A DNA stretch of 64,000 bases from Candidatus Spongiihabitans sp. Its GTDB lineage: Bacteria > Pseudomonadota > Gammaproteobacteria > Arenicellales > Poriferihabitantaceae. The notes under the pieces were generated by a model that ran no database searches, was not told the origin of the DNA, and was given only the letters and a program-made list of their open reading frames with translations. The DNA lies in NCBI GenBank assembly GCA_965206355.1, contig OZ242212.1, forward strand, positions 2,014,814 through 2,078,813, read 5' to 3'. The stretch's first letter is position 1, and every line of letters begins with the position of its first letter. The translations under genes were made by a program, and so were the position numbers. Shown here piece after piece: positions 5,776 to 48,125 of this stretch.

Positions 5776-5914
5776 GAGACCTTTGCACGGAAGATGATTT
5801 CGCTTTTAGGCAAGGCAAAAACGCACGGAATGAGGGAGTTTATGCTTATAAATGACCGATTGAGTACGATTTTAACGCAGCATGCAGGTGAAATGGCTTT
5901 CGTGCAAAGGTCTC
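5776..5914 (-). mobile_element. MITE copy 1 (139 bp, short variant)
   Basis: Terminal inverted repeats GAGACCTTTGCACG...CGTGCAAAGGTCTC, flanked by a 5-bp direct duplication TATTA (5771-5775 and 5915-5919). Confidence 0.85.
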
Positions 5915-6162
5915 TATTAGACATAAACAGATACCCTCAACATTGAGGAGAGAAAAATCATGGACACCCACATCCCCCTGCGTGATAACTGTGTTATGAT
6001 GATTACTGTTGTTATGATCAGATGGTACTTGTGCTGAAACTCAAGATAACAAAATTGTCTAGTAATTAGCCAAAACAACTTGATTTTTAAGAATATATGG
6101 TCAGCGGATAACTTTGGTTGTTGCCTGTTGCAATGCTCCATTTTCAATTTTCAAGCGTTTGT

Positions 6163-7311
6163 TTAACCTGCCTGAAAATGACGCAGTGCTGCTCCGTTTA
6201 CAATTACCTTTCTGGCGCGCTCCGCGCCATCCGCCAGAGTTGAAGCTAGTCCAACGTGTCTGAGACCGATAGCCACGCCATAGATTAAACTGTCACGCAT
6301 GGGACCAGTGTTATTTGCCAGCGCATCCAGTCCTAGCTGCAGATTATGCTCCACTACCGCATGCAATTTATCGCTGTTCTGAAAGCCGGTTTGTTTGATG
6401 GCTTCTGCATACCGTTGTGGGATAGCAAGCATACGCACATCCTGCTCAATCCCCAGTTGTTTGGGGTCAAGCTGATGTAATTCTATGAGCGCATTGTCGG
6501 CATCATCAGCGTACTCGCTCTGATAGCCGAAATATCGAGATAATTGACTTAGCGAGGGAATACAACCACCTTCGGTGCCACGCACAATCATCGCCGAATC
6601 AAATCCGCTCTGCTTTGCCAGCATCGCATAAATAGGTGGATAAGCCTTATGCACAAATCCGCTCATCAGATGAGTACTTCGGCAACCTGACAACGGTTTC
6701 AACACCACCTCAAGTGTTGACAAGCAACTGCGCTTGACTATCGCCTCACGCAGTTCAAGCAGATTGTGCAACTCGGGGATATAGTGCCTCTGATCGAGAT
6801 AGCTCCAACCCACCTTGCCATCATCCAGACAAGAAACACTATCCGTCAGGTTTCTGTCAACATTTTTTCCTGCCGCTTCCAACACCAAACGTGTGGTAAT
6901 ACCGTATTTCGGGCCGACTGCCTCAAGCCCATGGGTATAGGTGGGCAAACCCGATGCCGCAAATACCGCAGGCAGAAAGGGGGTTGCGCTCAAGCCGCGC
7001 AAATAGCCATTAAAAGGATCGGCTATCGCCAGAATTTGCGCGGCTGTTGTTTGTTGCGTGCGTGTTTTCTTGATTAAGGCAGTTAAAATACCCCGATTTT
7101 CTGCCTCGCTCTCGCGTTTCATGCGCAATACGATAAGAAATAATCCTGCACGAACCGCATCAATCTCACCATTAAGAATCATCGACATAGCGTCTTCAGC
7201 CTGTGCCTGATTCAGTGATTTACTCAATTCCGGTCCGGTGGCAACACGTTGCAGATAGGCGCGCATCCGCGCTTGCGGGTTGGTTGTCTTGTTCACGGTA
7301 TCGGCGCTCAT
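6163..7311 (-). CDS. glycosyl transferase family 3 / anthranilate phosphoribosyltransferase-like (TrpD2-type) protein
   Basis: N-terminal helical region (LSKSLNQAQAEDAMSMILNGEIDAVRAGLFLIVLRMKRES) and a G-rich core resemble the TrpD fold. The ORF is open to 7422, but the MSADTV start at 7311 avoids abutting etfA; the start is uncertain. Confidence 0.5.
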   Translation of the reverse strand: MSADTVNKTTNPQARMRAYLQRVATGPELSKSLNQAQAEDAMSMILNGEIDAVRAGLFLIVLRMKRESEAENRGILTALIKKTRTQQTTAAQILAIADPFNGYLRGLSATPFLPAVFAASGLPTYTHGLEAVGPKYGITTRLVLEAAGKNVDRNLTDSVSCLDDGKVGWSYLDQRHYIPELHNLLELREAIVKRSCLSTLEVVLKPLSGCRSTHLMSGFVHKAYPPIYAMLAKQSGFDSAMIVRGTEGGCIPSLSQLSRYFGYQSEYADDADNALIELHQLDPKQLGIEQDVRMLAIPQRYAEAIKQTGFQNSDKLHAVVEHNLQLGLDALANNTGPMRDSLIYGVAIGLRHVGLASTLADGAERARKVIVNGAALRHFQAG

Positions 7312-7422
7312 TTCCCCGCGCTTGCCATTCACATCAAATCGCCTATAATCACCGCCCTGATCCAACGAAAGCCGCCAAACTCTAGCCAACTCTGACAAAC
7401 TTGGGCAAGCGTAATACCACAA

Positions 7423-8382
7423 CTATTTTTCTAGCTCTGCCTGTAACGCCGGCACAGCCACAAACAAATCCTCATTCCAGCCATAGTCAGCAATCTGAAA
7501 GATGGGAGCTTCGGCATCATTATTGATGGCAACGATGACTTTTGAGTCTTTCATTCCAGCCAGATGCTGAATCGCACCCGAAATACCCACTGCCATATAC
7601 AAATCTGGTGCAACTACTTTTCCGGTTTGTCCAACCTGATAGTCATTGGGGACAAATCCGGCATCAACCGCTGCCCGCGATGCACCAACGGCACCGCCAA
7701 GCTGATCAGCCAGTTTTTCAAGTATCGAAAAGTTCTCTCCGCTTTGCATCCCACGCCCACCCGAAACAACCACTCGGGCAGAAGTTAATTCTGGTCGTTC
7801 AGTGGCACTCAGTGCCTGTCCAACAAACTGCACCGCAGTGGTCGCACCGACCTCATCCAGCTTTTCAATGTCAGCACCGTCGTCGGCACTTTCAGCATCA
7901 GCCGCTTCAAATGCCGTGGTGCGGACGGTAATCATTTTCACCGCATCAGCAGATTTCACCTTTGACAACGCATTACCCGCATAAATTGATCGCACAAAGG
8001 TATCGCCATCAACCACCTCGCTAATATCCGAGATTGCCTGTACATCACACAGTGCAGCTGCATAGGGAATCAATGCCTTGCCAAAGGTTGAAGCGGCTGC
8101 CAGCACATGACTGTAAGCCGTGCTATCAACCACTGATTTCACCAGTGCCGCGGTGTTTTCAGTAATCTCATTGGCATAAGCAGCACAATCACACAGTCGT
8201 ACCTGACTAACCCCGACTATTTTCGCTGCCGCTTCGGCAACACCCGTGCAGTCCTGACCGACAACCAAAACATGCACATCGCCACCCACTGCTGTGGCAA
8301 TTTTTGTGGCAGCGGTTACGGTATTGAGGGTTGCTAATGCTAATACCGATTTATCGTGCTCTGCTATTACCAGAATACTCAT
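7423..8382 (-). CDS. etfA: electron transfer flavoprotein subunit alpha
   Basis: 319-aa ORF with C-terminal FAD-binding motifs VVSGGRG, GASRAAVDAG and QVGQTGKVVAPDLYMAVGISGAIQH. Confidence 0.9.
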   Translation of the reverse strand: MSILVIAEHDKSVLALATLNTVTAATKIATAVGGDVHVLVVGQDCTGVAEAAAKIVGVSQVRLCDCAAYANEITENTAALVKSVVDSTAYSHVLAAASTFGKALIPYAAALCDVQAISDISEVVDGDTFVRSIYAGNALSKVKSADAVKMITVRTTAFEAADAESADDGADIEKLDEVGATTAVQFVGQALSATERPELTSARVVVSGGRGMQSGENFSILEKLADQLGGAVGASRAAVDAGFVPNDYQVGQTGKVVAPDLYMAVGISGAIQHLAGMKDSKVIVAINNDAEAPIFQIADYGWNEDLFVAVPALQAELEK

Positions 8383-9132
8383 TTAAATCACCTTCGCTTC
8401 GTTTTTTAGTTTATCAACCAATTCAGCCGCACTTGCAACCATAATACCCGCATCTCGCTCCGCCGGTTCGGTGACTTGTAGCACTTCAATACGATTACTG
8501 ACATCCACCGCCAACTGTTCGGGCGTTATCATATCAATGGGTTTCTTCTTCGCCTTCATAATATTCGGCAAGGAAGCATATCGCGGCTCGTTCAGTCGCA
8601 AGTCAGTGGTCACCACCGCAGGACAGGTTATTTGTAATTGTTCCAATCCGGCATCAATTTCCCGAGTAATCGCAAATCCGCCGTCATTCTTTTCTATTTT
8701 AGAAATATAACTTCCCAGTGGTCGTTGCATAATCGCAGCCAGCATCTGACCGGTTTGATTATTGTCGTCATCAATAGATTGTTTACCGAGAATAATCAGA
8801 TCGGTTGCTTCTTGTTCTGCGACCGCTTTAATCATTTTAGCAATCACCAGCGGTTCCAATATGGCATCAGTATTGATATGAATGCCACGGTCAGCACCCA
8901 TTGCCAGACCCGAACGAATCGTTTCTTGACATTTTTCAGGACCGGCAGAAAGCAGAATAACCTCTTCAGCATGTCCGGCTTCTTTCAGACGCAACGCTTC
9001 CTCCACCGCAATTTCGCAAAACGGGTTCATCGCCATTTTAACATTAGCTGTTTCAACACCTGTTTGGTCAGCCTTAACTCTAACCCTGATGTTTGCGTCA
9101 ATGACGCGTTTGATAGGTACCAGTATCTTCAT
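8383..9132 (-). CDS. etfB: electron transfer flavoprotein subunit beta
   Basis: 249-aa ORF starting MKILVPIKRVID, with NPFCEIAVEEALRLKE; directly upstream of and adjacent to etfA. Confidence 0.9.
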   Translation of the reverse strand: MKILVPIKRVIDANIRVRVKADQTGVETANVKMAMNPFCEIAVEEALRLKEAGHAEEVILLSAGPEKCQETIRSGLAMGADRGIHINTDAILEPLVIAKMIKAVAEQEATDLIILGKQSIDDDNNQTGQMLAAIMQRPLGSYISKIEKNDGGFAITREIDAGLEQLQITCPAVVTTDLRLNEPRYASLPNIMKAKKKPIDMITPEQLAVDVSNRIEVLQVTEPAERDAGIMVASAAELVDKLKNEAKVI

Positions 9133-9348
9133 TTCGTTGATTCTCCTCGAAACAATGGATGGATAGCGAAAATTGGCGCGGATTTTACCCTAATATTAAT
9201 ATGGTGAGTAGTCGCTTATCCACTTAAATTAGCATAAATTTCACATCATAAAAAGATGACATTGTGCCGACCATTGGGACGATCATTAAGGTAAGATACA
9301 CCCTATTTTTGTACAGTTTTGTACGGGATAGCCCGTCATTAGCGCATT

Positions 9349-10140: not shown

Positions 10141-10219
10141 GCGGAATCAAAATCACCATTACTGCCACTCACATTTAGCGGTAAGACATGAACATAAAAA
10201 CAATTGAGGACTCTAATCA

Positions 10220-11881
10220 ATGGCGCAATACGTTTTCACCATGAATGGCGTGGGCAAAGTCGTCCCGCCGAATCGACAGATACTGAAAGATATTTATCTG
10301 AACTTTTTCCCCGGTGCAAAAATCGGTGTACTGGGCTATAACGGCGGCGGCAAATCGACACTACTCAAAATCATGGCTGGCATTGACACTAATATCATCG
10401 GCGAAGCGCGACCGCGAGCCGATGTGCGCATTGGCTATCTGGCGCAAGAACCCGAATTAGATGAATCCAAAGATGTTCGCGGTAATGTTGAAGAAGGCAT
10501 GGCAGACATTAACCGTGCTAAACAACAACTGGAAGCAGTGTATGCCGCTTATGCGGAGGCCGATGCTGATTTTGATGCACTGGCAAAGCAACAGGCACAT
10601 TTGGAAGACATTGTGCAGGCGGCAGACGCGCACAACCTTGAGCATAAATTTGAAATTGCCGCTGATGCGTTGCGGTTACCGCCCTGGGATACGCCTATCA
10701 AAACACTTTCGGGTGGTGAAAGACGACGGGTCGCACTCTGCCGATTGCTGTTATCCAATCCGGATATGTTGATTCTGGATGAACCAACCAACCACCTTGA
10801 TGCCGAATCCATCGCCTGGCTGGAGAGATTTTTGCTTGAATTTGAGGGTACCGTAGTTGCGGTTACCCATGATCGTTATTTTCTTGACAATGTTGCCGGC
10901 TGGATTCTTGAACTTGACCGTGGTGCAGGCATCCCTTGGGAAGGCAATTATTCTTCATGGCTTGAACAAAAAGAAACCCGACTAGCGCAGGAACAAAAGA
11001 GCGAGCAGGCTCGAATTAAAAGCATCAAAAACGAGCTGGAATGGGTTCGTTCCAACCCTAAAGGACGACACGCCAAAAGCAAGGCGCGTATTAAACGCTT
11101 CGAGGAAATTTGCTCAAGCGACTACCAAAAACGCGCTGAAACGAATGAAATTTATATTCCACCAGGACCACGCCTCGGCGATCTGGTCATTGAAGCCAAG
11201 CAGATTTCTAAATCTTTCGGCGACAACCTGCTGTATGAAAACTTGAGTTTCAGCCTACCCAAAGGTGGCATAGTCGGCATTATCGGTGCTAATGGTGCGG
11301 GCAAGACAACGCTCTTTCGTATGATGACGCAACAGCAACAACCGACATCGGGAGAGTTTCGGGTTGGCGAGACGGTCAAAGTTGCCTATGTTGATCAATC
11401 ACGAGATACGTTGGATGCCAATAAAAGTGTTTTTGAAGAGGTCTCCAACGGTCTGGATTTGATGCTAGTCAACGGTCACCAAGTACAATCGCGGCGTTAC
11501 CTCGGTCGTTTTAATTTCAAAAGTACCGACCAGCAAAAAAAGGTGGGGACTTTATCTGGTGGTGAACGTAATCGCGTACATTTAGCCAAAGTCCTCGCCA
11601 GTGGTGGTAATTTACTGCTACTTGATGAACCGACTAATGATCTGGATGTAGAAACGCTGCGCGCATTGGAAGAAGCCATCTTGAATTATCCGGGTTGTGT
11701 CGCTGTTATTGCTCACGACCGCTGGTTTCTGGACAGAATCGCAACCCACATCCTCGCTTTTGAAGGTCATTCTCAAGTTACTTGGTTTGACGGAAATTAT
11801 AGCGACTACGCCGAAGACTACAAACGCCGCCACGGCGGCACCATCAAGCCGCAGCGGATGCGTTATAAGCGATTAAAGTAA
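10220..11881 (+). CDS. ettA: energy-dependent translational throttle protein EttA (ABC-F ATPase)
   Basis: 553-aa ORF with two ABC cassettes (GYNGGGKST / LSGGERRRV; GANGAGKTT / LSGGERNRV) and N-terminus MAQYVFTMNGVGKVVPP, typical of EttA/YjjK. Confidence 0.9.
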   Translation: MAQYVFTMNGVGKVVPPNRQILKDIYLNFFPGAKIGVLGYNGGGKSTLLKIMAGIDTNIIGEARPRADVRIGYLAQEPELDESKDVRGNVEEGMADINRAKQQLEAVYAAYAEADADFDALAKQQAHLEDIVQAADAHNLEHKFEIAADALRLPPWDTPIKTLSGGERRRVALCRLLLSNPDMLILDEPTNHLDAESIAWLERFLLEFEGTVVAVTHDRYFLDNVAGWILELDRGAGIPWEGNYSSWLEQKETRLAQEQKSEQARIKSIKNELEWVRSNPKGRHAKSKARIKRFEEICSSDYQKRAETNEIYIPPGPRLGDLVIEAKQISKSFGDNLLYENLSFSLPKGGIVGIIGANGAGKTTLFRMMTQQQQPTSGEFRVGETVKVAYVDQSRDTLDANKSVFEEVSNGLDLMLVNGHQVQSRRYLGRFNFKSTDQQKKVGTLSGGERNRVHLAKVLASGGNLLLLDEPTNDLDVETLRALEEAILNYPGCVAVIAHDRWFLDRIATHILAFEGHSQVTWFDGNYSDYAEDYKRRHGGTIKPQRMRYKRLK

Positions 11882-11884
11882 ATT

Positions 11885-11964
11885 GAGACTTTTGCACGAA
11901 AGCCATTTCACCTGCATGTTGCGTTAAAATCGTACTCAATCGGTCATTTATAAGCATAAACTCC
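11885..11964 (+). mobile_element. MITE copy 2 (truncated, left half only)
   Basis: GAGACTTTTGCACGAAAGCCATTTCACCTGCATG... matches the first ~80 bp of the family. Homology stops after TTCCGT. Starts 4 nt after the ettA stop. Confidence 0.7.
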
Positions 11965-11999: not shown

Positions 12000-12383
12000 C
12001 TATGGCTGGTCAATGCGTTGTATGGTTATGGGTTTTCGATTTTTGTCTATGCAGACATAGGTATATGTTGCCTCGGTTACCTTCATATCCTGTTGCGGCG
12101 ATCGCTTGCGTCTAACCCAAGTTTCGATGTGTATGGAAATTGAGCTCGTGCCAATGTGTGTGGTTTTGCAAAAACAACTCACCTGATCACCGACAAACAC
12201 GGGCAGGTGGAAGGTCATACCTTCTACTGCCACAGTAACAATTCGCTCCTTGACGATATAGCTGGTATGGATTGCGCCGGCCAAATCCATTTGCGCCATA
12301 ATCCATCCGCCAAAAATATCACCGCTCGGATTCGCATCCGCTGGCATGGCGATGGTACGCAATGATGGAAACTGTTCGTTCAC
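12000..12383 (-). CDS. yciA: acyl-CoA thioesterase (YciA-like hotdog fold)
   Basis: 127-aa ORF with MPADANPSGDIFGGWIMAQMDLAG, characteristic of YciA-type thioesterases. Confidence 0.8.
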   Translation of the reverse strand: MNEQFPSLRTIAMPADANPSGDIFGGWIMAQMDLAGAIHTSYIVKERIVTVAVEGMTFHLPVFVGDQVSCFCKTTHIGTSSISIHIETWVRRKRSPQQDMKVTEATYTYVCIDKNRKPITIQRIDQP

Positions 12384-14183: not shown

Positions 14184-14345
14184 GAGACCTTTGCACGAAA
14201 GCCATTTCACCTGCATGCTGCGTCGCCTAAAAGCGCCTACTGTTGGTAAAATCGTACTCAATCGGTCATTTATAAGCATAAACTCCCTCATTCCGTGCGT
14301 TTTTGCCTGGCCTGAAAGCGAAATCATCTTCCGTGCAAAGATCTC
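14184..14345 (+). mobile_element. MITE copy 3 (162 bp, long variant)
   Basis: Same termini as the other copies, plus a 23-bp internal insert CGCCTAAAAGCGCCTACTGTTGG. 5-bp duplication AATTC (14179-14183 and 14346-14350). Confidence 0.85.
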
Positions 14346-22694: not shown

Positions 22695-22860
22695 TAGCAC
22701 TATATTTAGACCGATCCTGGATACTAATTTAGATGAATCTTAACCCATTTTTTTAATTAAAATGAGACCTTTGCACGAAACCACAAGAATCTGCGTTGAG
22801 AATTTGCGATAATAGGTTCAAGCACTATACCCCACCACACTACCCCCTGGAGGAGAAGAA

Positions 22861-24003
22861 ATGGCCTGGAAAAACCTCACGCAACGCAGTTTGGCGGATG
22901 GCATGTTGATCGAGCATGATGCCCTCAAAGAACTGGATGGTGTGCACGAATTAATCGATTGGTCGCGCCTTGAGCAACTGCTTTCAGGTATTCATGCAAG
23001 CCCTCGGGGCGAGAAGGCCTGGCCGCCATTGATGATGGTTAAAGCGTTGTTGCTGCAAAGCTGGTACGGGCTCAGTGATCCGGCACTGGAAAAGCAATTG
23101 GCGCGAGACCTGCTGTTTCGTCGCTTCACCGGTCTGGACATTTCAGAATCGGTGCCGGATCACACGACGTTGTGGCGGTTTAGACAAACGCTGGAGCGCT
23201 TATCCTTGATGGATGCGTGCCTGGGTGAGATCAACACGCAATTGAGCGAACAAGGGCTTTACATCCAATCGGGAGGGGTCAGTATTGTTGATGCCAGTGT
23301 GATTGAAGCGAAGCCATGTCGTCCCTACAAGGGTCGTCCCCATAAGAACCAGGAAGGTCATTCGACCCAAGACCCCGAGGCCAGCTGGAATGTGAAAGCC
23401 GGGTCGGATGGAAAGCGCAAAAGCACATATGGGTATAAGGCGCACATAAATGTGGATGAAGATGGGTTCATCAAGTCAACCGACTACAGCCCGGGTAATG
23501 TGCATGATTCCAATTGCTTTACGGATTTATTAGGCGGCGATGAGACGGCGGTTTATGCGGATAGTGCTTATCGTAGTCGGGCTCACGACCAGTGGCTGGC
23601 GGAGCGACAGATAGATAGAGACCTTTGCACGAAAGCCATTTCACCTGCATACTGCGTTAAAAACGTACTCAATCGGTCATTTATAAGCATAAACTCCCTC
23701 ATTCCGTGCGTTTTTGCCTTGCCTGAAAGCGAAATCATCTTCCGTGCAAAGGTCTCAGATAACCGGGTCATCAAACGTGGCTATCGGAACAAGCCGTTGG
23801 ATGCACAGGGGAGGAAGTTTAATCGGCTTCATTCTGGGGTACGCTGTACGGTGGAACGTGTCTTTGGGGTGCTCAAGCTACACTACGGGATGGGCAAAGC
23901 CCGCTACCTGGGTCTTGGCCGTAACCGCACGCGCTTTGAGTTGATGTGCGTCGCCCACAATATCAAGCGGGGTTTATCGCTTCAGCAGGCAAGTTGCGCC
24001 TAA
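22861..24003 (+). CDS. IS5-family DDE transposase with an in-frame 144-bp MITE+duplication insertion (probably inactive)
   Basis: WPPLMMVKALLLQSWYGLSDPALE, VDASVIEA, YADSAYRS and VERVFGVLK match the IS5/DDE_Tnp_1 pattern. Residues RDLCTKAISPAYCVKNVLNRSFISINSLIPCVFALPESEIIFRAKVSD are MITE-encoded, between the second D and the E. Confidence 0.8.
   Translation: MAWKNLTQRSLADGMLIEHDALKELDGVHELIDWSRLEQLLSGIHASPRGEKAWPPLMMVKALLLQSWYGLSDPALEKQLARDLLFRRFTGLDISESVPDHTTLWRFRQTLERLSLMDACLGEINTQLSEQGLYIQSGGVSIVDASVIEAKPCRPYKGRPHKNQEGHSTQDPEASWNVKAGSDGKRKSTYGYKAHINVDEDGFIKSTDYSPGNVHDSNCFTDLLGGDETAVYADSAYRSRAHDQWLAERQIDRDLCTKAISPAYCVKNVLNRSFISINSLIPCVFALPESEIIFRAKVSDNRVIKRGYRNKPLDAQGRKFNRLHSGVRCTVERVFGVLKLHYGMGKARYLGLGRNRTRFELMCVAHNIKRGLSLQQASCA
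23618..23756 (+). mobile_element. MITE copy 4 (139 bp) inside the IS5-family transposase gene
   Basis: Full termini are present. 5-bp duplication AGATA (23613-23617 and 23757-23761). Confidence 0.85.
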
Positions 24004-24011
24004 AAAATGAA

Positions 24012-24729
24012 GGGGCTGTCCTAGATAACACTGAAAGAGTGCTATCATGGGATCAATGAGAAAGAGTCGTTTAAGCCGTTATAAACAAGGTCGTCTTATC
24101 GAGCATTTTGTGTCGGGTTCAACCGCCCGCACGGCAGCGTTGCTGGTTGGGATCAACAAGTCCACATCGGCGTATTTTTATCACCGGTTGCGCGAGATTA
24201 TCGCATATGAGCTTGAACAAGAAAGCCATGAGGTTTTTGACGGGGAGATTGAAGTCGATGAAAGTTATTTTGGCGGTGGTCGCAAAGGCAAACGAGGTCG
24301 GGGAGCGGCGGGGAAAATCCCGGTGTTTGGCTTACTCAAACGGGGCGGGAGGGTTTACACCAAGATTATCCCGGATGCCTGTTCAGCAACCTTGATGCCA
24401 ATTATTGAGCGTAAAGTGGTTCCGGACAGCATCGTTTATTCCGACTGTTGGAGCGGTTATAATGTGCTGGACGTGAGCGATTTCAAGCACCACCGCATCA
24501 ACCATTCCCAACGCTTCGCGGAGCAGGGGAATCACATCAACGGCATTGAGAACTTTTGGAGTCAGGCGAAGCGTCATATGCACAAATTCAACGGTGTTCC
24601 CAAGGCGCATTTTGGGCTGTTTTTGAAGGAGTGCGAGTGGCGTTTTAACAACAGCGACCCAATATCTCAATTATTTCAATTAAAACAATGGGTTGGAGTT
24701 CATTTAAACTAGTTATCTAGGACAGCCCC
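24012..24729 (+). mobile_element. IS1595-family (IS1016-like, 718 bp) insertion sequence nested in the IS5-family element
   Basis: 18-bp perfect terminal inverted repeats GGGGCTGTCCTAGATAAC / GTTATCTAGGACAGCCCC. 8-bp target duplication AAAATGAA (24004-24011 and 24730-24737). Confidence 0.85.
24047..24712 (+). CDS. IS1595-family transposase (ISXO2-like DDE domain)
   Basis: 221-aa ORF. EVDESYFGG, IVYSDCWSGY, HHRINHS and INGIENFWSQAKR match my recollection of IS1595/IS1016 transposases. Confidence 0.8.
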   Translation: MGSMRKSRLSRYKQGRLIEHFVSGSTARTAALLVGINKSTSAYFYHRLREIIAYELEQESHEVFDGEIEVDESYFGGGRKGKRGRGAAGKIPVFGLLKRGGRVYTKIIPDACSATLMPIIERKVVPDSIVYSDCWSGYNVLDVSDFKHHRINHSQRFAEQGNHINGIENFWSQAKRHMHKFNGVPKAHFGLFLKECEWRFNNSDPISQLFQLKQWVGVHLN

Positions 24730-24861
24730 AAAATGAAAAAGGGGTGAAAGATGGGCTAATCGGCCAACCAATACGGCTGATTGAGTGCTTTTTGGGCATC
24801 TTTCTCAAAAAAAGCCCGTTTGGAGAACTGAGAAACCCTACAATGTGCCCGTGCAAAGGTT

Positions 24862-26652
24862 TCATTTTTTCTTAGGCATATACAAATCAGTAATCGTACC
24901 CTCAAAGGCTTCGGCAGCAAATCCTAATGTTTCTGCCAGAGTCGGGTGAGCGTGGATTGATAATCCAATATCAGCGGCATCCGCGTTCATCTCAATAGCG
25001 AGTACCGCTTCGGCGATGAGATCTCCGGCATTATTGCCAGTTATCCCAGCACCGATAATGCGATCATTGCCTTTATTAAAAAGTAATTTAGTTATACCTT
25101 CGTTGCGACCCTGAGACAGTGATCTACCGCTGGCTACCCAGGGGAAAACCCCTTTCCCATAATTCAAACCTTGTGCCTTGGCTTCGGTTTCGGTGATGCC
25201 AACCCAGGCTATCTCCGGATCGGTATAGGCAACATTCGGTATCACTTTGGCATCAAACCCGCTCTTTAATCCTGCTGCTACTTCTGCGGCAACTTTCCCT
25301 TCATGGGATGCTTTATGCGCCAGCATCGGTTGCCCGACGGTGTCGCCAATCGCAAAGATATGCGGGATATTGGTCTGTTGTTGGTTATTGACTTCAATAA
25401 AGCCACGCTCTGAGACGATAATACCTGCCGCTTCGGCGTTAATACGCTTGCCATTCGGAGTACGCCCAACCGCAACCAAAACACCATCAAAAGTGCTATG
25501 TGGCGGGGCTTTATCACCCTCAAAAGTTACTTTGATGCCGCTTTTTAATGCCTTCATTCCGGTTACTCTGGTTTTCAGCCAGATGTTTTGGTATTGCGCT
25601 TTAATACGTTTTAACAATGGGCGCACCAAGTCCACATCAGTACCCTGCATCAGACCATCAAGCATTTCCACAACGCTGATTTTACTGCCCAGCGCATGAT
25701 ATACCGTTGCCATTTCCAGACCAATAATGCCGCCGCCGACAATGAGTAATTTTTCAGGAATATTATTGAGTGCCAATGCCGCGGTAGAATCCATCACTCT
25801 GGCATCATGGTGAGGAAAGTCGGCAATCTCGACTGACTCCGAGCCGACGGCAATAATCATTTTGTCAAAGGAAATGGTCTCAGAGCCAGTGCTTGACGAC
25901 ACCTCAATCATATTTGCCGTTTGCAGTTGTCCGACACCTTGAATGACGGTTACCTTGCGTTTTTTTGCAAGCCCTGACAATCCCTGAGTTAATTGATTAA
26001 CGAGAGCGTTTTTCCAACTCAGGGTTTGTTTAATGTCGATTTTCGGTGCCGCGAAAGTCAAACCAACATGCTCGGCCTGCTCGCTTTCAGCAATCACTCT
26101 CGCCACATGCAGCAAGGCTTTTGAAGGGATACAACCGACATTGAGACAAACCCCACCCAAGCGTTGGTGTTTTTCAACAAGTGTAACCTGCAATCCGAGG
26201 TCGGCTGCCCGAAATGCCGCAGTATAACCACCCGGTCCCGCACCCAATACCAGCAACTCGGTATGTTTGTCGGCATTGTGTCCAACCGCCGCTCGTGATG
26301 AGGCGGGGGATGCGGGTGCGTCTCCTGCATCGGCTGGGGTGGATGAATTCGGGAATTCAGCGGCTTGTTCTGGCGGCGGTTGTGCGGGGAGCGTTTTTTG
26401 CTGAATCTGTGGGTCAGCTTCAATAATAAACAGCACCTGACCGCTGCAAATCCGATCACCCACCGCAATGTTCACTACCTTAACAACACCACCGTTGCTG
26501 GCGGGAATTTCCATAGTCGCCTTATCACTCTCAATAGCGAGCAATGGCTCATCGGTCGCTATAACATCACCAACCTGCACGAAAATCTCGATAATGGGAA
26601 CATTTTCAAATTCCCCTAAATCGGGGGTTTTGAGCTCAATTTGATTGGACAT
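24862..26652 (-). CDS. lpdA: dihydrolipoyl dehydrogenase (E3) with an N-terminal lipoyl domain
   Basis: 596-aa ORF with an N-terminal lipoyl motif (IESDKATMEIPA), FAD motif GAGPGGY, redox-active GGVCLNVGCIPSK, and a C-terminus ending ..TDLYMPKKK as in Lpd. Confidence 0.9.
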   Translation of the reverse strand: MSNQIELKTPDLGEFENVPIIEIFVQVGDVIATDEPLLAIESDKATMEIPASNGGVVKVVNIAVGDRICSGQVLFIIEADPQIQQKTLPAQPPPEQAAEFPNSSTPADAGDAPASPASSRAAVGHNADKHTELLVLGAGPGGYTAAFRAADLGLQVTLVEKHQRLGGVCLNVGCIPSKALLHVARVIAESEQAEHVGLTFAAPKIDIKQTLSWKNALVNQLTQGLSGLAKKRKVTVIQGVGQLQTANMIEVSSSTGSETISFDKMIIAVGSESVEIADFPHHDARVMDSTAALALNNIPEKLLIVGGGIIGLEMATVYHALGSKISVVEMLDGLMQGTDVDLVRPLLKRIKAQYQNIWLKTRVTGMKALKSGIKVTFEGDKAPPHSTFDGVLVAVGRTPNGKRINAEAAGIIVSERGFIEVNNQQQTNIPHIFAIGDTVGQPMLAHKASHEGKVAAEVAAGLKSGFDAKVIPNVAYTDPEIAWVGITETEAKAQGLNYGKGVFPWVASGRSLSQGRNEGITKLLFNKGNDRIIGAGITGNNAGDLIAEAVLAIEMNADAADIGLSIHAHPTLAETLGFAAEAFEGTITDLYMPKKK

Positions 26653-26705: not shown

Positions 26706-26866
26706 GAGATTTTTGCACGAAAGCCATTTCACCTGCAGGCTACGTCGCCTAAAAGCACCTACTGTTGGTAAAATCGTACTCAATCGGTCATTTACAAGCA
26801 TAAACTCCCTCATTCCGTGCGTTTTTGCCTGTCTGAAAGCGAAATCATCTTCCGTGCAAAGATCTC
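26706..26866 (+). mobile_element. MITE copy 5 (161 bp, long variant) between lpdA and aceF
   Basis: Termini are GAGATTTTTGCACG...CGTGCAAAGATCTC. 5-bp duplication ATAAA (26701-26705 and 26867-26871). Its last two bases form part of the aceF stop codon. Confidence 0.85.
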
Positions 26867-28160
26867 ATAAAGACAACCTTCGGACATCCCCGAAAGACTG
26901 GATCAGAAAGGCAACAAATCGGGCCGCTTCTGCACCATCAATAACGCGATGATCATAAGACAAATCTAGGGGTAACATAAGTCTTGGCTGAAAAGATTGC
27001 CCATCCCAGAGCGCGCTCATTTTCGCTCTGGTTATGCCCAGTATCGCAACCTCTGGTGCATTGACGATAGGGGTAAAAGCACTTCCGCCAATGCCACCGA
27101 GACTAGAAATAGTGATGCACCCGCCCTTGAGGTCATCGGGTGTTAGTTTGCCCTCTCTGGAACGCACACTGATATCCGCCATCTCTTGCGCCAAATCAAA
27201 AACACTCTTGCGCTCAACCTCCCGAATCACTGGAACAACCAGCCCATTGGGCGTATCCACCGCGATACCGATGTTGTAGTATTTCTTGAGTAGCAAGTGC
27301 ACACCGTCAGTAGCCAGCGAGGCATTGACATTGGGATATTTTTTAAGTGCGCCAACCAATGCTTTCATCACGAACGACAGCAATGTGATTCTTACGCCAT
27401 CTTTGTCCGCTTCCTCTTTTAGCGACTGACGAAAGGCTTCAAGTTCGGTAATATCTGCTTCATCATGGTGGGTCACATGGGGAATATTTAGCCAAGCGCG
27501 TTGCAGATGGAGAGCGGATAACTTTTTAATTCGAGATAATTCAATAGTCTCAACTTCCCCAAATTGAGAGAAATCAACTTCAGGTATGAGTGGAATGCCC
27601 TGCCCTTTTAATGGCTTGGCAGTTGTCGTGCTTGGTGCGGAAAGTTTTTGCTTGACCCAGGCGATGACATCCTCTTTCATAATGCGTGCTTTTCGCCCGC
27701 TACCCGTAATTTGAGCTAAATCCGCACCCATTTCTCTGGCAAATCGGCGCACCCCCGGACCGGCATGAGGCAGAATGCCATCAGCTTGCACCTCTGAAGC
27801 GGGCAAGCCCGGCAACGGCGCGTGTTCATGCGTGATCGCTGGCTTTTGTGGCGCGGGATTGGCTTTGCCAACAGCTACAGCGTTATTCTCGCTGATATTT
27901 TGCTCGGCATTGTCACTCGCAGGAGTATCTTCAGCAGCAATACGCATTATCACCATCCCTTCGGACACACTATCACCAACGGCAACATCAATGGCAGTGA
28001 TGGTGCCATTATCCGGTGCCGGTATCTCCATCGTTGCCTTATCACTTTCCAGTGTCAATAGCGAATCCTCTGCCACAACCGTATCACCAACACGCACTAA
28101 AATTTCAATAATCTCAACCGTATCGAAATCACCAATATCAGGAACTTTTACTTCAGCCAT
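26865..28160 (-). CDS. aceF: dihydrolipoyllysine-residue acetyltransferase (pyruvate dehydrogenase E2), single lipoyl domain
   Basis: 431-aa ORF with lipoyl motif LESDKATMEIPA, a subunit-binding domain (GPGVRRFAREMGADL) and catalytic DHRVIDGA. Confidence 0.9.
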   Translation of the reverse strand: MAEVKVPDIGDFDTVEIIEILVRVGDTVVAEDSLLTLESDKATMEIPAPDNGTITAIDVAVGDSVSEGMVIMRIAAEDTPASDNAEQNISENNAVAVGKANPAPQKPAITHEHAPLPGLPASEVQADGILPHAGPGVRRFAREMGADLAQITGSGRKARIMKEDVIAWVKQKLSAPSTTTAKPLKGQGIPLIPEVDFSQFGEVETIELSRIKKLSALHLQRAWLNIPHVTHHDEADITELEAFRQSLKEEADKDGVRITLLSFVMKALVGALKKYPNVNASLATDGVHLLLKKYYNIGIAVDTPNGLVVPVIREVERKSVFDLAQEMADISVRSREGKLTPDDLKGGCITISSLGGIGGSAFTPIVNAPEVAILGITRAKMSALWDGQSFQPRLMLPLDLSYDHRVIDGAEAARFVAFLIQSFGDVRRLSL

Positions 28161-38896: not shown

Positions 38897-39035
38897 GAGA
38901 CCTTTGCACGGAAGATGGTTTCGCTTTCAGGCAAGGCAAAAACGCACGGAATGAGGGAGTTTATGCTTATAAATGACCGATTGAGTACGATTTTAACGCA
39001 GCATGCAGGTGAAATGGCTTTCGTGCAAAGGTCTC
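38897..39035 (-). mobile_element. MITE copy 6 (139 bp)
   Basis: Full termini are present, in the opposite orientation to copy 7. The flanks ACAGT / AGTAG do not form a clean 5-bp duplication. Confidence 0.85.
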
Positions 39036-39105: not shown

Positions 39106-39462
39106 GGGGGTGACTGGCTTCGACGTTGGTCGCGAAACCATTGGAGCATGTCGAGGTGTAGAGTTCCTCGTAAATCCAGCTACACAACATTAGTTGCCAA
39201 CGACGACAACTACGCACTAGCCGCTTAAGCCGGTTAGTCCTTTCGCTTGGCTCGCTTTTAGGCTGAGGTTTGAAAGGTCATCTTATAAAAGCTCGCTAGT
39301 CAGTTCTGCTCGTTAGCTGACGGTTAAAACCAATCGGGCTCGCCGACCTGTTTGCTTCGTCTGCCTGCTGGCAAGTCGGTTAACTTAAAGTGCAGACTAA
39401 GCATGTAGTGCCGATGTGTGTAGGATCTGCGGACGCGGGTTCAATTCCCGCCACCTCCACCA
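39106..39462 (+). ncRNA. ssrA: transfer-messenger RNA (tmRNA)
   Basis: 5' GGGGGTGACTGGCTTCGACG. Tag reading frame at 39196-39228: GCC AAC GAC GAC AAC TAC GCA CTA GCC GCT TAA, giving ANDDNYALAA. 3' tRNA-like end GGACGCGGGTTCAATTCCCGCCACCTCCACCA. Confidence 0.9.
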
Positions 39463-43727: not shown

Positions 43728-44825
43728 TCAATGCCGAGCAAGGGCGGTGGTTACAGCACAAGCCGTTACCACAACCCGTTGAAAAATCAACACCAAATCT
43801 TCAAGAGCAAGTTGCTCATTAAGTGGCTCGCGAGCAATACGCCGATAATAACTTATTCTATCATAAAGGCGATACAGTCTTTCAACAGAGGTTTTACGGA
43901 CATCAATACCCATACCCTTCGGCCAATGCGCTTCGACATTGCTCACGCAGCACTTTATCAGTCTGGCAACAAAACGATGTAGCCAGAGTAATAGCGGCTC
44001 AAAATCCAATTTGTTAAGCTGAGCGGCAAGATCGACCGCACTAATCTGCCCTGCCACTATCTCGGAAAAGCCTTTAAGACACTGTTGATGGTGTTGCAAA
44101 AAGCCATTGTCCACTAATTGTCGCGCCTCCAGCGGGCATCCATTTGCCAGCGTTAATGCCAATTCAGCCTGCTCTTCGTTAAGGTCTTGTGCGAGCAACG
44201 CCAAGGCACTTTCCCAATCTGGGACAGTCAGATTATGTGTCATGCAGCGACTGCGAATGGTTGCTGGCAAGTGGCTGGGGTTTGCAGTAACCAGAATAAA
44301 AATTGAACCCGGTGGTGGTTCTTCAAGTAATTTTAACAAAGCATTCGCCGCATTGATATTCAGACAATCCGCTGGCAGGATGAGGGCAACTCTGATACTC
44401 GAAATATGTGCATGAGTGGTGAACCGTTCTATCAATTCCCGCACCTGATCAATGGCAATAATGCGACTGTATTTTTTCTTTTTTTCTCTTTCCTTGCTAT
44501 CCAAATAACGGTTACTGTATGCCCCTAACAGTGGCAAGCGACCTTCGGTAGCTTCCAACTCACTGCTTAAAACATGCAAGTCGGGATGGCTTCCAGCAGC
44601 AAATAATTGGCAATTCTGACACTGCCCACACACGACATTGCGCGCTGATTGCGTTGACGAATCGATCTCTTCTGTCACTTCAGAACATAACAGGTATTGA
44701 CATAGTGCAAGCGCAAATTCGCGCTTGCCGATACCCGATTGTCCGCTTATTAAAAGACCATGATGCAACCTGCTCTTGTCTTTGCTGAGCTGTTTCCAAT
44801 CCGATTGTTGCCACGAAAAGATCAT
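43728..44825 (-). CDS. holB: DNA polymerase III subunit delta'
   Basis: HHGLLISGQSGIGKREFA, zinc module CGQCQNCQLFAAGSHPDL, and LLKLLEEPP. Confidence 0.8.
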   Translation of the reverse strand: MIFSWQQSDWKQLSKDKSRLHHGLLISGQSGIGKREFALALCQYLLCSEVTEEIDSSTQSARNVVCGQCQNCQLFAAGSHPDLHVLSSELEATEGRLPLLGAYSNRYLDSKEREKKKKYSRIIAIDQVRELIERFTTHAHISSIRVALILPADCLNINAANALLKLLEEPPPGSIFILVTANPSHLPATIRSRCMTHNLTVPDWESALALLAQDLNEEQAELALTLANGCPLEARQLVDNGFLQHHQQCLKGFSEIVAGQISAVDLAAQLNKLDFEPLLLWLHRFVARLIKCCVSNVEAHWPKGMGIDVRKTSVERLYRLYDRISYYRRIAREPLNEQLALEDLVLIFQRVVVTACAVTTALARH

Positions 44826-45520
44826 TTGTTACAAGCATGCCGTGTCATTAAAAATGCCTCAACGCTGACAATTAAATCACGTTCAACCTCCGTAATCGTC
44901 CTGTTAGCATCAAGCAACTTGATTCTTTTCGGATATTTTTTTGCACGTTGCAAATAGCGCTGACGAACCGCCTCTTTGAACGCAATGTGCTGTTGTTCAA
45001 AGCGATCACCTTTGCTGCCACGTTGTCGAGCTCGCTGCAATCCGATATCAACCGGCACATCAAGCATAATAGTGAGATCAGGTTGCAATCCATTTTGCAC
45101 CCAGTCTTCAAGCTGTTGTATGCGCCGCTCGCTAATACCTCGCCCACCTCCCTGATAGGCATAGGTCGCATCAGTAAAACGGTCGCAAAGCACATATTGA
45201 CCGGCTGCCATCGCCGGCAAAATCACCTCGTGCAGATGCTGCATCCGCGCCGCAAACATTAACATCAGCTCCGTATCATCACTTATTCTGGCACTGTTGC
45301 GGGTGTTTTTTCCGAGCTTATTGTCATACTCATCATCGTCATCAAGTAAAATTTTTCGCAGTGATTCACCCAACCGTGTTCCACCCGGTTCACGGCTGGC
45401 AATAACATCAAACTTTTTATTTATCAGCCAGTTCTGTAGATATTCAACAAGGGTGGTTTTACCCGCTCCATCAGCACCTTCAATAGTAATGAGTACACCT
45501 TTTTTGACGGTATTATTCAT
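44822..45520 (-). CDS. tmk: dTMP kinase (with an acidic ~20-aa insertion)
   Basis: P-loop ITIEGADGAGKTT, CDRFTDATYAYQGGGRG, and an extra DDDDEYDNKLGKNTRNSARISDD segment. Confidence 0.9.
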   Translation of the reverse strand: MNNTVKKGVLITIEGADGAGKTTLVEYLQNWLINKKFDVIASREPGGTRLGESLRKILLDDDDEYDNKLGKNTRNSARISDDTELMLMFAARMQHLHEVILPAMAAGQYVLCDRFTDATYAYQGGGRGISERRIQQLEDWVQNGLQPDLTIMLDVPVDIGLQRARQRGSKGDRFEQQHIAFKEAVRQRYLQRAKKYPKRIKLLDANRTITEVERDLIVSVEAFLMTRHACNK

Positions 45521-45522
45521 TA

Positions 45523-46566
45523 TTAATTCTGCTTGAAAATATATTTTCGCACTGCCGCATTGTGCTGTTTCAGCGTCTCGGAAAATTTATGCTTACCTGC
45601 ACCCATCGCCACAAAATAAAGCGACCGGGTTGTTTTCGGATGGACTGCCGCACGCAATGAATCATGTCCAGGCAGACTAATCGGCGTAGGCGGCAACCCA
45701 TATCTCGTATAGGTATTATAGGGAGTGTCTGTCTTCAGATGTTTGCGCGTGATATTACCTTTATATTCGCGTCCCAGCCCATAGATAACCGTTGGATCGG
45801 TTTGCAGACGCATACCGATTCTTAATCGGTTATTGAATACGCCAGCGATATGGGATTGCTCACTTCGATCCTGCGTTTCTTTTTCAATAATTGAAGCCAG
45901 AATCAGTGCCTGATAGCGATTTTTTATTTGCAGGTTGTCTGCGCGATTCGCCCACACTCGATCCAACTCCTCCTGCATCAGCTTAAAGGCTTCTTTATAA
46001 ACACTAATATCACTATCGCCCCTGTGGTAATGATAGGTTTCCGGGTAAAACTGCCCCTCTGGATGCAACTGCGGATGCCCCATCGCCTGCATGATTTGTT
46101 GATCGCTCCAAGACAAAGTTGTCTTTTCCAACTTCGGTGCCGCATTAATGAACGCCCGCATCTGCGCGAAGGTCCAGCCTTCAATGATAGTGATTTTTAT
46201 GCCTACCTGCCCTTTACCGCTCACCAGCCTGTGCATAAGCTCTGCCACTGAAATACCATCAGGGAAACGATATTCACCCGCTTTAACTCGGGTTTCCAGC
46301 GCATGCAATCGTGCGTATATTCTTAAACTGTAAGGTTCGTCAATAACCTGATGATCAACTAGCCGATTGACGATAGAAGTCAGCGATTCACCACGCGCAA
46401 CCAAAAAAGTCTGATTAGTAAACTTGAGCGGTTTCGATATGGTCGAGTTGTAATACCAAAATAAGCACAGCACAACAATGACTGCCAACAGGGCAACCAG
46501 CACACTGGTTTTTTTATGCCACGAGTCCAACATTGTCACCAACCCGATTATTGACCTACGTAGCAA
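45523..46566 (-). CDS. mltG: endolytic murein transglycosylase MltG (YceG-like)
   Basis: N-terminal TM anchor; motifs LASIIEKET, VFNNRL and LQTDPTVIYG; sits in mltG-tmk-holB order. Confidence 0.85.
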   Translation of the reverse strand: MLRRSIIGLVTMLDSWHKKTSVLVALLAVIVVLCLFWYYNSTISKPLKFTNQTFLVARGESLTSIVNRLVDHQVIDEPYSLRIYARLHALETRVKAGEYRFPDGISVAELMHRLVSGKGQVGIKITIIEGWTFAQMRAFINAAPKLEKTTLSWSDQQIMQAMGHPQLHPEGQFYPETYHYHRGDSDISVYKEAFKLMQEELDRVWANRADNLQIKNRYQALILASIIEKETQDRSEQSHIAGVFNNRLRIGMRLQTDPTVIYGLGREYKGNITRKHLKTDTPYNTYTRYGLPPTPISLPGHDSLRAAVHPKTTRSLYFVAMGAGKHKFSETLKQHNAAVRKYIFKQN

Positions 46567-46596
46567 TCAACAACTCCAAAGCAGCGACAGCGCTCA

Positions 46597-47835
46597 TCAA
46601 ATCCTGCGGAACACCAAGGTACCATTAGTCCCTCCGAATCCAAATGAATTACTCAGTGCAACTTCAATTTTATGCGTTCTAGCCTCACCCGGCACATAAT
46701 CGAGATCACATTCGGGATCTTGATCCAGCAGATTGATGGTTGGCGGAATCGCCTGTTCATAAATTGACATCACCGTCATTGCCGCTTCCACCCCCCCCGC
46801 CGCACCCAACAAATGCCCAATCATTGACTTGTTGGAACTAATTAGCAGTTTTTTCGCATGCGCACCAAAAGACCTTTTTACTGCCCGCGTTTCGATAACA
46901 TCACCCAGCGGTGTGGAAGTACCATGGGCGTTCAAATATTGAACCTGCGTGGCTTCGACTTTGGCATTACTCAGCGCGTTATTCATACATCTGGACGCAC
47001 CTTCACCATCCGGAGACGGGCTGGTTATATGATAAGCATCACCGCTCAGACCAAAACCGATTAGCTCTGCATAAATTCGTGCCCCACGTTTTTTGGCATG
47101 CTCATATTCTTCCAGCACCAAAACCCCAGCCCCTTCACCCATAACAAACCCGTCCCTACCCGTATCCCAAGGACGGCTTGCAGATTCGGGGTCATCGTTA
47201 CGGGAGCTCAATGCCCGCGCCGAGGCAAATCCTGCCAGCGCAGTCGGCGAGATGGGTGCTTCGGCACCGCCCGCAATCATAACATCGGCATCACCGTATT
47301 CAATCAATCGCCCAGCCTCACCAATAGCATGCGTACCGGTGCTACAGGCCGTTACCATAGACAGGTTTGGTCCCTGCAAACCATGTACAATGGATAGGTT
47401 ACCCGAAATCATATTGGTGATGGTCATAGGAATATAAAAGGGCGATATGCGGCGCGCACCCTTTTCCCGCAACAGCTCTGTAGTTGATTCAATGGTATTA
47501 ACCCCGCCAATACCCGAGCCGATATACGCCCCTACTCGTGGCGCATTGCTTGCGGTGATTACAAGTGCAGAATCCCTGATCGCCTCATTGCCACACGCCA
47601 GACCGATCTGCATAAACCGATCCATTTTTCGGGTAGTTTTCTCAGGAAAATGTTCGCCGAGTACAAAATTATCAACCTCGCCAGCAACAGAACATGGAAA
47701 CGAGGATGCGTCAAAATGGCTAATATGCGAAATACCGTTTTTGCCGTTCAACATCCCTTGCCAAGATGCCGTCAAACCAATACCAATAGGCGTGATTGCG
47801 CCCATACCCGTAACTACTACACGTCTATTATTCAT
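46597..47835 (-). CDS. fabF: 3-oxoacyl-ACP synthase II
   Basis: Starts RRVVVTGMGAITPIG, with active-site TACSTG, HGTSTPLGD and GHLLGAAG. The MNNRR start is preferred over the ORF start at 47859. Confidence 0.9.
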   Translation of the reverse strand: MNNRRVVVTGMGAITPIGIGLTASWQGMLNGKNGISHISHFDASSFPCSVAGEVDNFVLGEHFPEKTTRKMDRFMQIGLACGNEAIRDSALVITASNAPRVGAYIGSGIGGVNTIESTTELLREKGARRISPFYIPMTITNMISGNLSIVHGLQGPNLSMVTACSTGTHAIGEAGRLIEYGDADVMIAGGAEAPISPTALAGFASARALSSRNDDPESASRPWDTGRDGFVMGEGAGVLVLEEYEHAKKRGARIYAELIGFGLSGDAYHITSPSPDGEGASRCMNNALSNAKVEATQVQYLNAHGTSTPLGDVIETRAVKRSFGAHAKKLLISSNKSMIGHLLGAAGGVEAAMTVMSIYEQAIPPTINLLDQDPECDLDYVPGEARTHKIEVALSNSFGFGGTNGTLVFRRI

Positions 47836-47987
47836 TAAATATTCTACCTTTTTAAGCAAGCTGTATTATACAAGACAAAATTTTTAAGAACATCGGTTCA
47901 GCGTGATTTTTTCGTAGCCGGTTTTTGTTAGTGCAGGTGATGGACTCATACACCGTATTCCTAAACTTTCGCGGATAATGATATTAT

Positions 47988-48125
47988 GAGACCTTTGCAC
48001 GAAAGCCATTCACCTGCATGCTGCGTTAAAAACGTACTCAATCGGTCATTTATAAGCATAAACTCCCTCATTCCGTGCGTTTTTGCCTTACCTGAAAGCG
48101 AAATCATCTTCCGTGCAAAGGTCTC
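47988..48125 (+). mobile_element. MITE copy 7 (138 bp)
   Basis: Full termini are present. Perfect 5-bp duplication ATTAT (47983-47987 and 48126-48130). Confidence 0.85.

Follow-up and report, generated by a model that had tools for sequence, protein, structure and literature searches.

The window examined here, a 64-kb stretch of DNA taken as a whole, carries a family of short repeats that raises the question of what moved them, whether the mover still works and where their interior comes from. The first-pass annotation had listed seven MITE copies and had named the transposase of a resident IS5-family element as their likely mobiliser. Alignment of the window copies gave six full copies and one left-hand fragment, at coordinates that proved exact (Table 1), and a covariance-model scan of the entire window returned the same seven copies with no additions. 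The ends GAGACCTTTGCACG / CGTGCAAAGGTCTC form inverted repeats on every copy, and the 14-mer GAGACCTTTGCACG, with up to two mismatches allowed, has 15 matches in the window where 0.36 would be expected. The copies at 5776 and 38897 are inverted relative to all others. Five of the six full copies are flanked by the perfect 5-bp duplications originally described; the sixth, at 38897, was correctly set apart, as its flanks have just AGT in common. The two size classes in the window differ by the 23-bp insert, and a third class, of 157 bp, was found elsewhere in the genome.

Table 1. Positions of the MITE copies and of the composite IS element in the 64-kb window
Feature	Position	Strand	Evidence
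MITE copy, 139 bp	5776–5914	-	TSD TATTA
Truncated MITE, left ~83 bp only	11885–~11967	+	alignment, covariance model
MITE copy, 162-bp class with 23-bp insert	14184–14345	+	TSD AATTC
Composite element: ISAba23-like IS5-family IS with two nested insertions	22764–24863	+	termini, blastn
IS5-family transposase ORF (DUF772 + DDE_Tnp_1; NF033581)	22861–24003	+	PF05598 + PF01609
MITE copy, 139 bp, in frame inside the IS5-family transposase gene	23618–23756	+	TSD AGATA
Nested IS1595-family IS, 718 bp, transposase ORF 24047–24712	24012–24729	+	perfect 18-bp IRs
MITE copy, 161 bp	26706–26866	+	TSD ATAAA
MITE copy, 139 bp	38897–39035	-	without a clean TSD
MITE copy, 138 bp	47988–48125	+	TSD ATTAT

The MITE contains no transposase gene, its longest stop-free frame being 46 codons. 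A stop-free frame had been reported in one orientation; such a frame does exist, but the 139-bp class has one in each orientation, and only this class keeps the reading frame on insertion (139 + 5 = 144). The truncated copy lies between convergent genes, an ABC-F ATPase gene (10220–11881) and an ORF at 12000–12383. The 161-bp copy separates the E2 (aceF-like) and E3 (lpd-like) genes of a pyruvate dehydrogenase cluster, the copy at 38897 is 70 bp upstream of a tmRNA gene (39106–39462), and the neighbours of the copy at 47988 are a KAS II-like gene and a Vut_1 transporter gene.

A genome-wide count, which had been proposed as a check, found 313 complete copies with paired termini in the 2.4-Mb genome, amounting to approximately 2% of the chromosome, together with 31 solo termini. 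Mean identity to the consensus was 96.8–98.1% depending on size class, and 98.1% in the 139-bp majority class. The repeats are true MITE copies, of an ordinary kind, and with 313 copies approximately 98% identical to the consensus the family underwent a recent burst in the host lineage. The target duplication was consistent across the genome: a perfect 5-bp TSD was present in 243 of the 313 copies (78%), compared with 3.3 expected from shuffled flanks, while lengths of 3, 4 and 6–10 bp were not enriched among the same copies. The target-site logo built from the genome-wide copies is palindromic, Y|A-N-W-N-T|R. In 45 copies the TSD had more than one mismatch, and a search of these for a recombination signature gave reciprocal 5-mer matches that were too few and prone to chance. 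Empty sites were sought in five congeneric genomes, where DNA identity is 73–77% and synteny is broken; none was recovered, and the flanks of the copy at 5776 map far apart in all five.

The element proposed as the source of the transposase has its termini where they had been placed, though its 2100 bp are a composite of an IS5-family IS, a MITE and an IS1595-family IS. When both nested insertions are removed, the IS5-family IS is 1230 bp long. Its transposase scored 265 bits against NF033581 (cut-off 140) and is 332 aa without the insert; it reads as 380 aa as the MITE and its TSD add 48 in-frame codons, which fall downstream of the second Asp region of the DDE motif and ahead of its Glu. The nested IS1595 is flanked by an 8-bp TSD, AAAATGAA, and the composite itself by AAAAT and ATTTT, which form no direct repeat. 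The resident IS is single-copy, as blastn and tblastn searches of the genome recovered only the window copy and a 290-bp remnant, and no intact transposase of the ISAba23-like clade was found by either search. The sole resident transposase gene is broken, with a MITE inserted in frame and a nested IS1595 carried by the same element.

Several features tie the MITE to this IS lineage. The MITE left end, GAGACCTTTGCACGAAA, is identical to the IS left end over 17 bases, and the other ends are identical over 14 bases. The resident IS conforms to the ISAba23-like clade in its length of approximately 1.2 kb and in its IRs of ~16 bp that start GA[GA]ACCTTTGCACG. ISAba23 is a 1249-bp member of the IS5 family with 16-bp IRs and a 5-bp TSD (PMC4110982); its ends are GAAACCTTTGCACGAA / TTCGTGCAAAGGTCTC and its TSD is TATCT. 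The resident element resembles ISAba23, found in Acinetobacter and Moraxella, in its match to the NF033581 model, in the 53% amino acid identity of its transposase and in its length of about 1.2 kb, as well as in termini of the form GA[GA]ACCTTTGCACGAA; the 5-bp target duplication of ISAba23 is shared by the MITE (PMC4110982). The MITE, unlike the autonomous ISAba23, is without a gene and has only 14–17 terminal bases in common with it. Intact relatives of the resident IS, 72–97% identical, approximately 1200 bp (1.2 kb) long and with the same termini, were found in other genomes, including those of the marine Gammaproteobacteria Pseudohongiella, Cycloclasticus and Candidatus Endonucleobacter. 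A perfect 5-bp TSD flanked 35 of the 55 full-length relatives in other genomes, and these share the Y|A-N-W-N-T|R logo.

The termini, TSD length and target logo all agree with the resident IS lineage and support the IS5-family mobiliser named in the first-pass annotation. On these three matches we consider it very probable (roughly 0.9) that the MITEs are non-autonomous elements of 139, 157 and 162 bp that were mobilised by an ISAba23-like IS5-family DDE transposase in a recent burst. Each MITE would carry the approximately 14–17 terminal bases recognised by such a transposase and nothing else of that IS. Acting in trans, the transposase would bind both inverted ends, as their anatomy suggests, and insertion at the AT-rich palindromic target would proceed via cuts staggered by 5 bp, with repair of the gaps producing the 5-bp duplication. 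Because the single copy of the resident IS is interrupted by the MITE and carries IS1595, the family is probably frozen now; most likely it has lost its mobility, barring the arrival of a related transposase or residual activity of the interrupted protein. The family illustrates burst-and-freeze dynamics as well as the disabling of a presumed mobiliser by its own MITE, and its 313 young copies, sharp palindromic logo and single dead master make it a clean natural data set.

Other resident elements could also be considered as the mover. IS1595 is the only other abundant IS in the genome and, with 17 near-identical copies (97.5–100% identity), the only one that looks currently active, while the long hairpin formed by the MITE is a shape also seen in REPINs and might point to a REP/RAYT-type Y1 transposase. 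The first-pass annotation had raised the case of termini that fit a different IS family; IS1595 has ends GGGGCTGTCCTAGATAAC and an 8-bp TSD, and the MITE matches neither. For the REP/RAYT type, no Y1_Tnp (PF01797) gene was found in the genome, and REP and REPIN sequences make no target duplications, whereas 78% of the MITE copies have one of 5 bp. A mover of either kind is scarcely credible. The MITE could instead have arisen from the resident IS by internal deletion, as a classical type I MITE with decayed IS sequence as its interior. Textbooks explain the origin of MITEs in this way (PMC3184786), and the identity of the termini over 17 and 14 bases accords with it. Past the termini, however, the interior has no similarity to the resident IS, in line with the original description, nor to ISAba23 or the IS of G016, and the same interior was found in further genera, families and classes, in MITEs whose ends match different transposons. 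An origin by internal deletion is accordingly very improbable.

The interior is a long hairpin. Folding of the two strands, one of the checks originally suggested, gave −41.5 and −58.8 kcal/mol (z = −5.6 and −8.1), and the central 66 nt covary. The layout of this core is an A-tract, a covarying stem, a long inner helix, the stem and a T-tract. Its two helices covary across genera, with 86% of cells paired and 53 double changes, against 33–50% and 5–12, respectively, in slid controls. The core was found in 52 of the 151 sampled families of the host's class, Pseudomonas included, and also in other classes of the phylum, and the ends of the MITEs that carry it are of at least eight unrelated types; searches of E. 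coli genomes returned no copy of it. No Rfam family matched the element, even with E values of up to 10 allowed. For MITEs with TAGAACCTATCTCAAAAT-type ends, a search for a partner IS found none, and the single 1.6-kb pair of such ends inspected encloses a glutathione-synthetase-like gene rather than an IS. A literature search for the core sequence or for a conserved MITE core returned nothing relevant and no description of it, and no link to the core was established for the MITEs of P. syringae (PMC3189936) or the repeat families of P. fluorescens (PMC3184786).

It is possible, though somewhat short of probable, that the MITE is a chimera in which short ISAba23-like ends flank a covarying module of approximately 66–85 nt that is conserved across at least one phylum and is a selected functional unit. 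Such a module could serve as a bidirectional terminator or insulator, provide a binding site for a host factor that aids transposition, or itself be the mobile or founding part, taking on new ends time and again. If the core is indeed selected, this would contradict the standard view of MITE interiors as unrelated leftovers (PMC3184786). Current ideas on the origin of MITEs do not explain why a third of the sampled families have a covarying core in common, inside MITEs whose ends are unrelated. The MITE being otherwise ordinary, the shared core is its interesting part, and the question it poses is testable in cultivable species.

A related possibility is that the MITE was spread by a transposase but has been kept mainly by selection, as a hairpin useful to the host, for instance one acting as a bidirectional terminator or insulator or a 3′ structure that stabilises RNA. 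The layout of the core reads as a terminator both ways, yet a simple terminator scan flagged no copy, and some copies lie inside operons, such as the one separating E2 from E3 in the pyruvate dehydrogenase cluster, a setting in which strong termination would have polar effects. Likewise, the covariation of the two helices across genera would fit a structure under selection in the host, but the balance of wobbles in the core (G-U and A-C, 16 versus 18) gives no indication that either RNA strand is selected over the other. In tandem contexts orientations that place the better-folding strand in the transcript predominate (90 versus 58, p = 0.01), a modest bias based on crude gene calls. Copies are also nearer to upstream stops than to downstream starts, though convergent, tandem and divergent spacers hold copies nearly in proportion to their length. 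Retention for host use thus seems unlikely. A simple promoter scan flagged nothing inside the MITE copies.

Known repeat families offer partial parallels to these ISAba23-like-ended MITEs. Correia elements (CREE/NEMIS) of Neisseria are present in hundreds of copies, making up about 2% of a genome of approximately 2 Mb, and duplicate TA. Compared by description, they are similar to the MITE in density, long-hairpin shape and location next to genes but differ in termini and duplication, and identification as a Correia element was rejected as the MITE has termini GAGACC... and a 5-bp TSD. The type II MITEs ATR (with ISNme1) of Neisseria meningitidis and BrickBuilt and MITEPgRS (with ISPg1/ISPg4) of Porphyromonas gingivalis have GAGACCTTTGCA termini in common with IS5-family elements (PMC4596501). 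The MITE described here is, like them, non-coding, with likeness to an IS confined to the GAGACC(T)TTGCA terminal repeat (PMC4596501). Copy numbers in those families are approximately 19 per genome and their duplications are irregular (PMC4596501), in contrast to 313 copies and a clean 5-bp TSD here; the comparison covers termini, copy number and duplications.

Almost all surviving copies occupy intergenic positions or the outermost ends of genes. Using crude longest-ORF gene calls, 80% of the MITE copies were intergenic compared with 14% of the genome, and on the same crude calls occupancy per matching target motif was 13–19 times higher at intergenic sites. That a compact genome tolerates 2% MITE DNA can be related to survival between genes, to in-frame insertions of 144 bp and to regeneration of stop codons. 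Insertion in a stop codon is neutral when the flanking T and the first two bases of the MITE, GA, remake TGA, and TGA was regenerated in this way at 12 gene ends. One of these is the E2 gene in the window, where the original TAG was replaced by a TGA (26865–26867, minus strand) made up of the flanking T and the terminal GA of the MITE.

The terminal 14-mer GAGACCTTTGCACG, with up to two mismatches allowed, was found 15 times in the window, each time at the coordinates assigned to a repeat in the first-pass annotation, where 0.36 occurrences are expected from shuffled sequence. Alignment of the seven loci resolved them into six complete MITEs and one left-hand fragment of approximately 83 bp at 11885, with two size classes that, as had been claimed, differ by a 23-bp insert; the copies starting at 5776 and 38897 are in the opposite orientation to the remainder. 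The exact 5-bp flanking duplications TATTA, AATTC, AGATA, ATAAA and ATTAT were recovered, as was the lack of a clean duplication at 38897, and a covariance-model scan with filters off found no eighth copy in the window. The copy at 38897, the only full one in the window without a target-site duplication (TSD), is 70 bp upstream of a tmRNA gene (39106–39462; Rfam RF00023, 217 bits), and nothing connects the two. The copy at 5776 lies at a synteny breakpoint (window 4500–7200) despite its perfect TSD, and the genes on its two flanks are separated by 0.4–2 Mb in each of the five congeners searched.

Pairing of forward and reverse termini across the whole genome (a chromosome of 2.36 Mb, 46.9% GC, and two small extra contigs) identified 313 complete MITEs and 31 solo termini. 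Exactly 139 bp was the length of 204 of the complete copies, 61 were 162 bp and 16 were 157 bp, with a few of odd length. Without the MITEs and a single TSD per copy the chromosome would be 46.8 kb (2.0%) shorter, and the seven copies in the window thus represent the average genomic density rather than a hot spot. The 5-bp duplication held genome-wide, being perfect in 243 of the 313 copies and within one mismatch in 268, against a chance level of 3.3 (maximum 12) when left flanks were shuffled against right; TSD lengths of 3, 4 and 6–10 bp were not enriched among the 313. The target logo reconstructed from the flanks is a palindrome, with T or C immediately 5' of the TSD in 94% of copies, A/T at TSD positions 1, 3 and 5 in 94, 86 and 92% (preferentially A, then W, then T) and A or G immediately 3' in 88%. 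A fainter alternating AT preference extends five further bases to either side.

Mean identity to the class consensus is 96.8–98.1% (98.1% for the majority 139-bp class, in which 21 copies match the consensus exactly), and this level of identity indicates a recent burst. In the 157-bp subfamily the left terminal repeat is five bases short (GAGACCTTTGC-A / GAGACCTTTGC-AGCC; for example at chromosome positions 846549 and 1083908). Perfect 5-bp TSDs flank 10 of the 17 chromosomal copies of this subfamily, and approximately 12 terminal bases therefore seem to be enough for transposition.

The 2100-bp IS at 22764–24863 is composed of three elements, one inside another (table). The nested MITE separates the ADSAY aspartate region from the VERVFG glutamate of the transposase, and an IS1595-family element encoding a transposase of 221 aa begins eight bases past the stop codon of the outer ORF. 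When both inserts were deleted in silico, a 1230-bp IS with an intact ORF of 332 aa was restored, which scored 265 bits against the IS5-family model NF033581 (NCBIfam; cut-off 140).

Elements nested in the resident IS and the hairpin core of the MITEs (window positions)
Feature	Position	Details
Outer IS5 ORF	22861–24003	DUF772 and DDE_Tnp_1 domains
Nested MITE	23618–23756	TSD AGATA; adds 144 bp (48 stop-free codons)
Nested IS1595-family element	24012–24729	718 bp; perfect 18-bp IRs; 8-bp TSD AAAATGAA
Core	23655–23719 and centre of all other copies; loci L087–L172	66-nt covarying hairpin

No second copy of the resident IS was found in the genome by blastn, tblastn or Pfam search, which returned a 290-bp right-end remnant on the chromosome (914185–914475) and an unrelated 154-aa DDE fragment. 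By comparison, the genome has 17 copies of the IS1595-family element with 97.5–100% identity, and this IS is thus apparently the one now active there.

The first-pass annotation had proposed the IS5-family transposase as the likely mobiliser, and its relatives bear this out. Among the 137 found in a scan of species-representative genomes, the best (72–97% identical) were in Pseudohongiella, Cycloclasticus, Candidatus Endonucleobacter (dozens of copies), Methylococcaceae and others. Both ends were retained at 55 loci, where the elements are approximately 1200 bp and begin GAGACCTTTGCACGAA. A perfect 5-bp duplication flanked 35 of these, and the logo was that of the MITE, with T/C before the duplication in 31, A first in 26, T last in 27 and A/G after it in 31 of the 35. 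The closest named relative is ISAba23 (53% identity), described as an IS5-family element of 1249 bp with 16-bp IRs and a 5-bp duplication (PMC4110982); in an Acinetobacter plasmid it has the ends GAAACCTTTGCACGAA ... TTCGTGCAAAGGTCTC with TATCT on either flank. The MITE and the ISAba23-like clade agree in termini, duplication length and target preference, and the mobiliser interpretation therefore stands. IS1595 differs from the MITE in all three respects, and no Y1/RAYT transposase was found in the source genome.

Termini of the form GAGACCTTTGCA shared by IS5-family elements and otherwise unrelated MITEs have been described, in Neisseria (ISNme1 and ATR) and Porphyromonas gingivalis (ISPg1 and BrickBuilt) (PMC4596501). 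The evidence supports assignment of the repeats to IS5/ISAba23-type MITEs, an element of a kind already known. To this are added here a genome-wide census and target logo, a single master IS copy that is dead, a mechanism of stop-codon regeneration at insertions and independent evidence for a phylum-wide core within unrelated MITE ends.

The burst would have been driven by the resident IS or by sister copies since lost. The MITE interrupts the sole resident transposase gene within the catalytic domain, IS1595 further lengthens the IS, and the family is presumably now frozen. Mobility may return if the interrupted protein of 380 aa still works or if a related transposase arrives; the congeners G001 and G005 carry intact transposase copies (51–56% identical).

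Gene context was assessed using crude longest-ORF calls on MITE-free sequence. On these calls, 249 of 313 insertions are intergenic, compared with 14% of the genome, and occupancy per target-motif site is 13–19 times higher in intergenic than in coding sequence. Purifying selection is the likely cause, as composition alone fails to account for the bias. Most of the 'genic' insertions are at the extreme ends of the called ORFs. At 12 gene ends genome-wide, a stop codon is formed at the junction by the flanking T and the initial GA of the MITE. The aceF-like E2 gene of the pyruvate dehydrogenase cluster (minus strand), at the copy 26706–26866, reads ...tct tta TGA/gatc, with its stop at 26865–26867; the sequence beyond the copy gives TAG as the original stop, and its replacement by TGA leaves the E2 protein unchanged. 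Since most TSDs have T as their last base, an insertion within a stop codon is neutral. A further 12 ORFs run 6–34 codons into a MITE before stopping. The stop-free frame noted earlier for the 139-bp MITE does exist, but in each orientation rather than in one. This class adds 48 codons in the open frame, and approximately eight copies are found within open frames, including the transposase gene. Another of these, a 139-bp copy outside the window (C1:1029131–1029269), is in frame mid-way in a D12-class DNA-methyltransferase-like ORF with NYAGSK ... DPPY motifs that is open for 430 codons.

The entire MITE is an imperfect palindrome, and its two strands fold as RNA with −41.5 and −58.8 kcal/mol (z = −5.6 and −8.1). 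Between tandem genes the MITE more often has the orientation in which its better-folding strand would be transcribed (90 v 58, p=0.01), a modest bias that depends on approximate gene calls. The MITE matched no Rfam family, and simple scans flagged no promoters or terminators within the copies.

As had been noted, the MITE interior is unlike that of the IS, similarity to the resident IS, ISAba23 and another IS being confined to the termini. The congeners G001 and G006 contain on the order of a hundred diverged MITEs (75–81% identical) with the same ends and centre and different arms. In another genus (G016) MITEs have a homologous centre, but their ends (GAGACTGCAGCATAAC) match those of that genome's own IS5-family element (ends GAGAGTGCAGCATAAC, 5-bp TSD), the transposase of which is 43% identical. 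Within the order, a sequence model of the centre matched 18 of 151 genomes. Across the class, sampled at a single genome per family, R2, a two-helix model, had full-length matches in 52 of 151 genomes; it also matched 19 genomes from other classes of the phylum, frequently in 10–30 or more copies each. At least eight unrelated types of ends flank the core (for example TAGAACCTATCTCAAAAT, AGGCCGTTGAAAAAC, AGGAACCTCTGATTAAT, AGAGCCTATTCAATATC and GGAAGCTCTGCAAAAC), and named carriers include plasmids of Pseudomonas veronii, P. aeruginosa and the P. syringae group, Halomonas and Candidatus Fukatsuia.

In 29 diverse cores the two helices were 86% paired, compared with 33–50% for slid partners, with 53 double-change cells (5–12 in slid controls) and a covariation score of 0.298 (at most 0.074). 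The layout (A-tract, variable covarying stem, conserved imperfect inner helix, stem, T-tract) reads as terminator-like in both directions. Wobble pairs showed no strand bias (16 v 18), which leaves a DNA-level explanation equally open. According to a review (PMC3184786), the cores of MITEs from different taxa are not similar to one another, and a literature search found no published description of this core sequence. The evidence points to the MITE centre belonging to a phylum-wide covarying hairpin module of MITEs with unrelated ends. The shared core makes the finding more than routine, and is a lead to a possible function. At one locus in another genome (L151, G032:C4:85808–87431), two MITEs of the TAGAACCTATCTCAAAAT type in inverted orientation surround a glutathione-synthetase-like gene, in an arrangement resembling a composite transposon.
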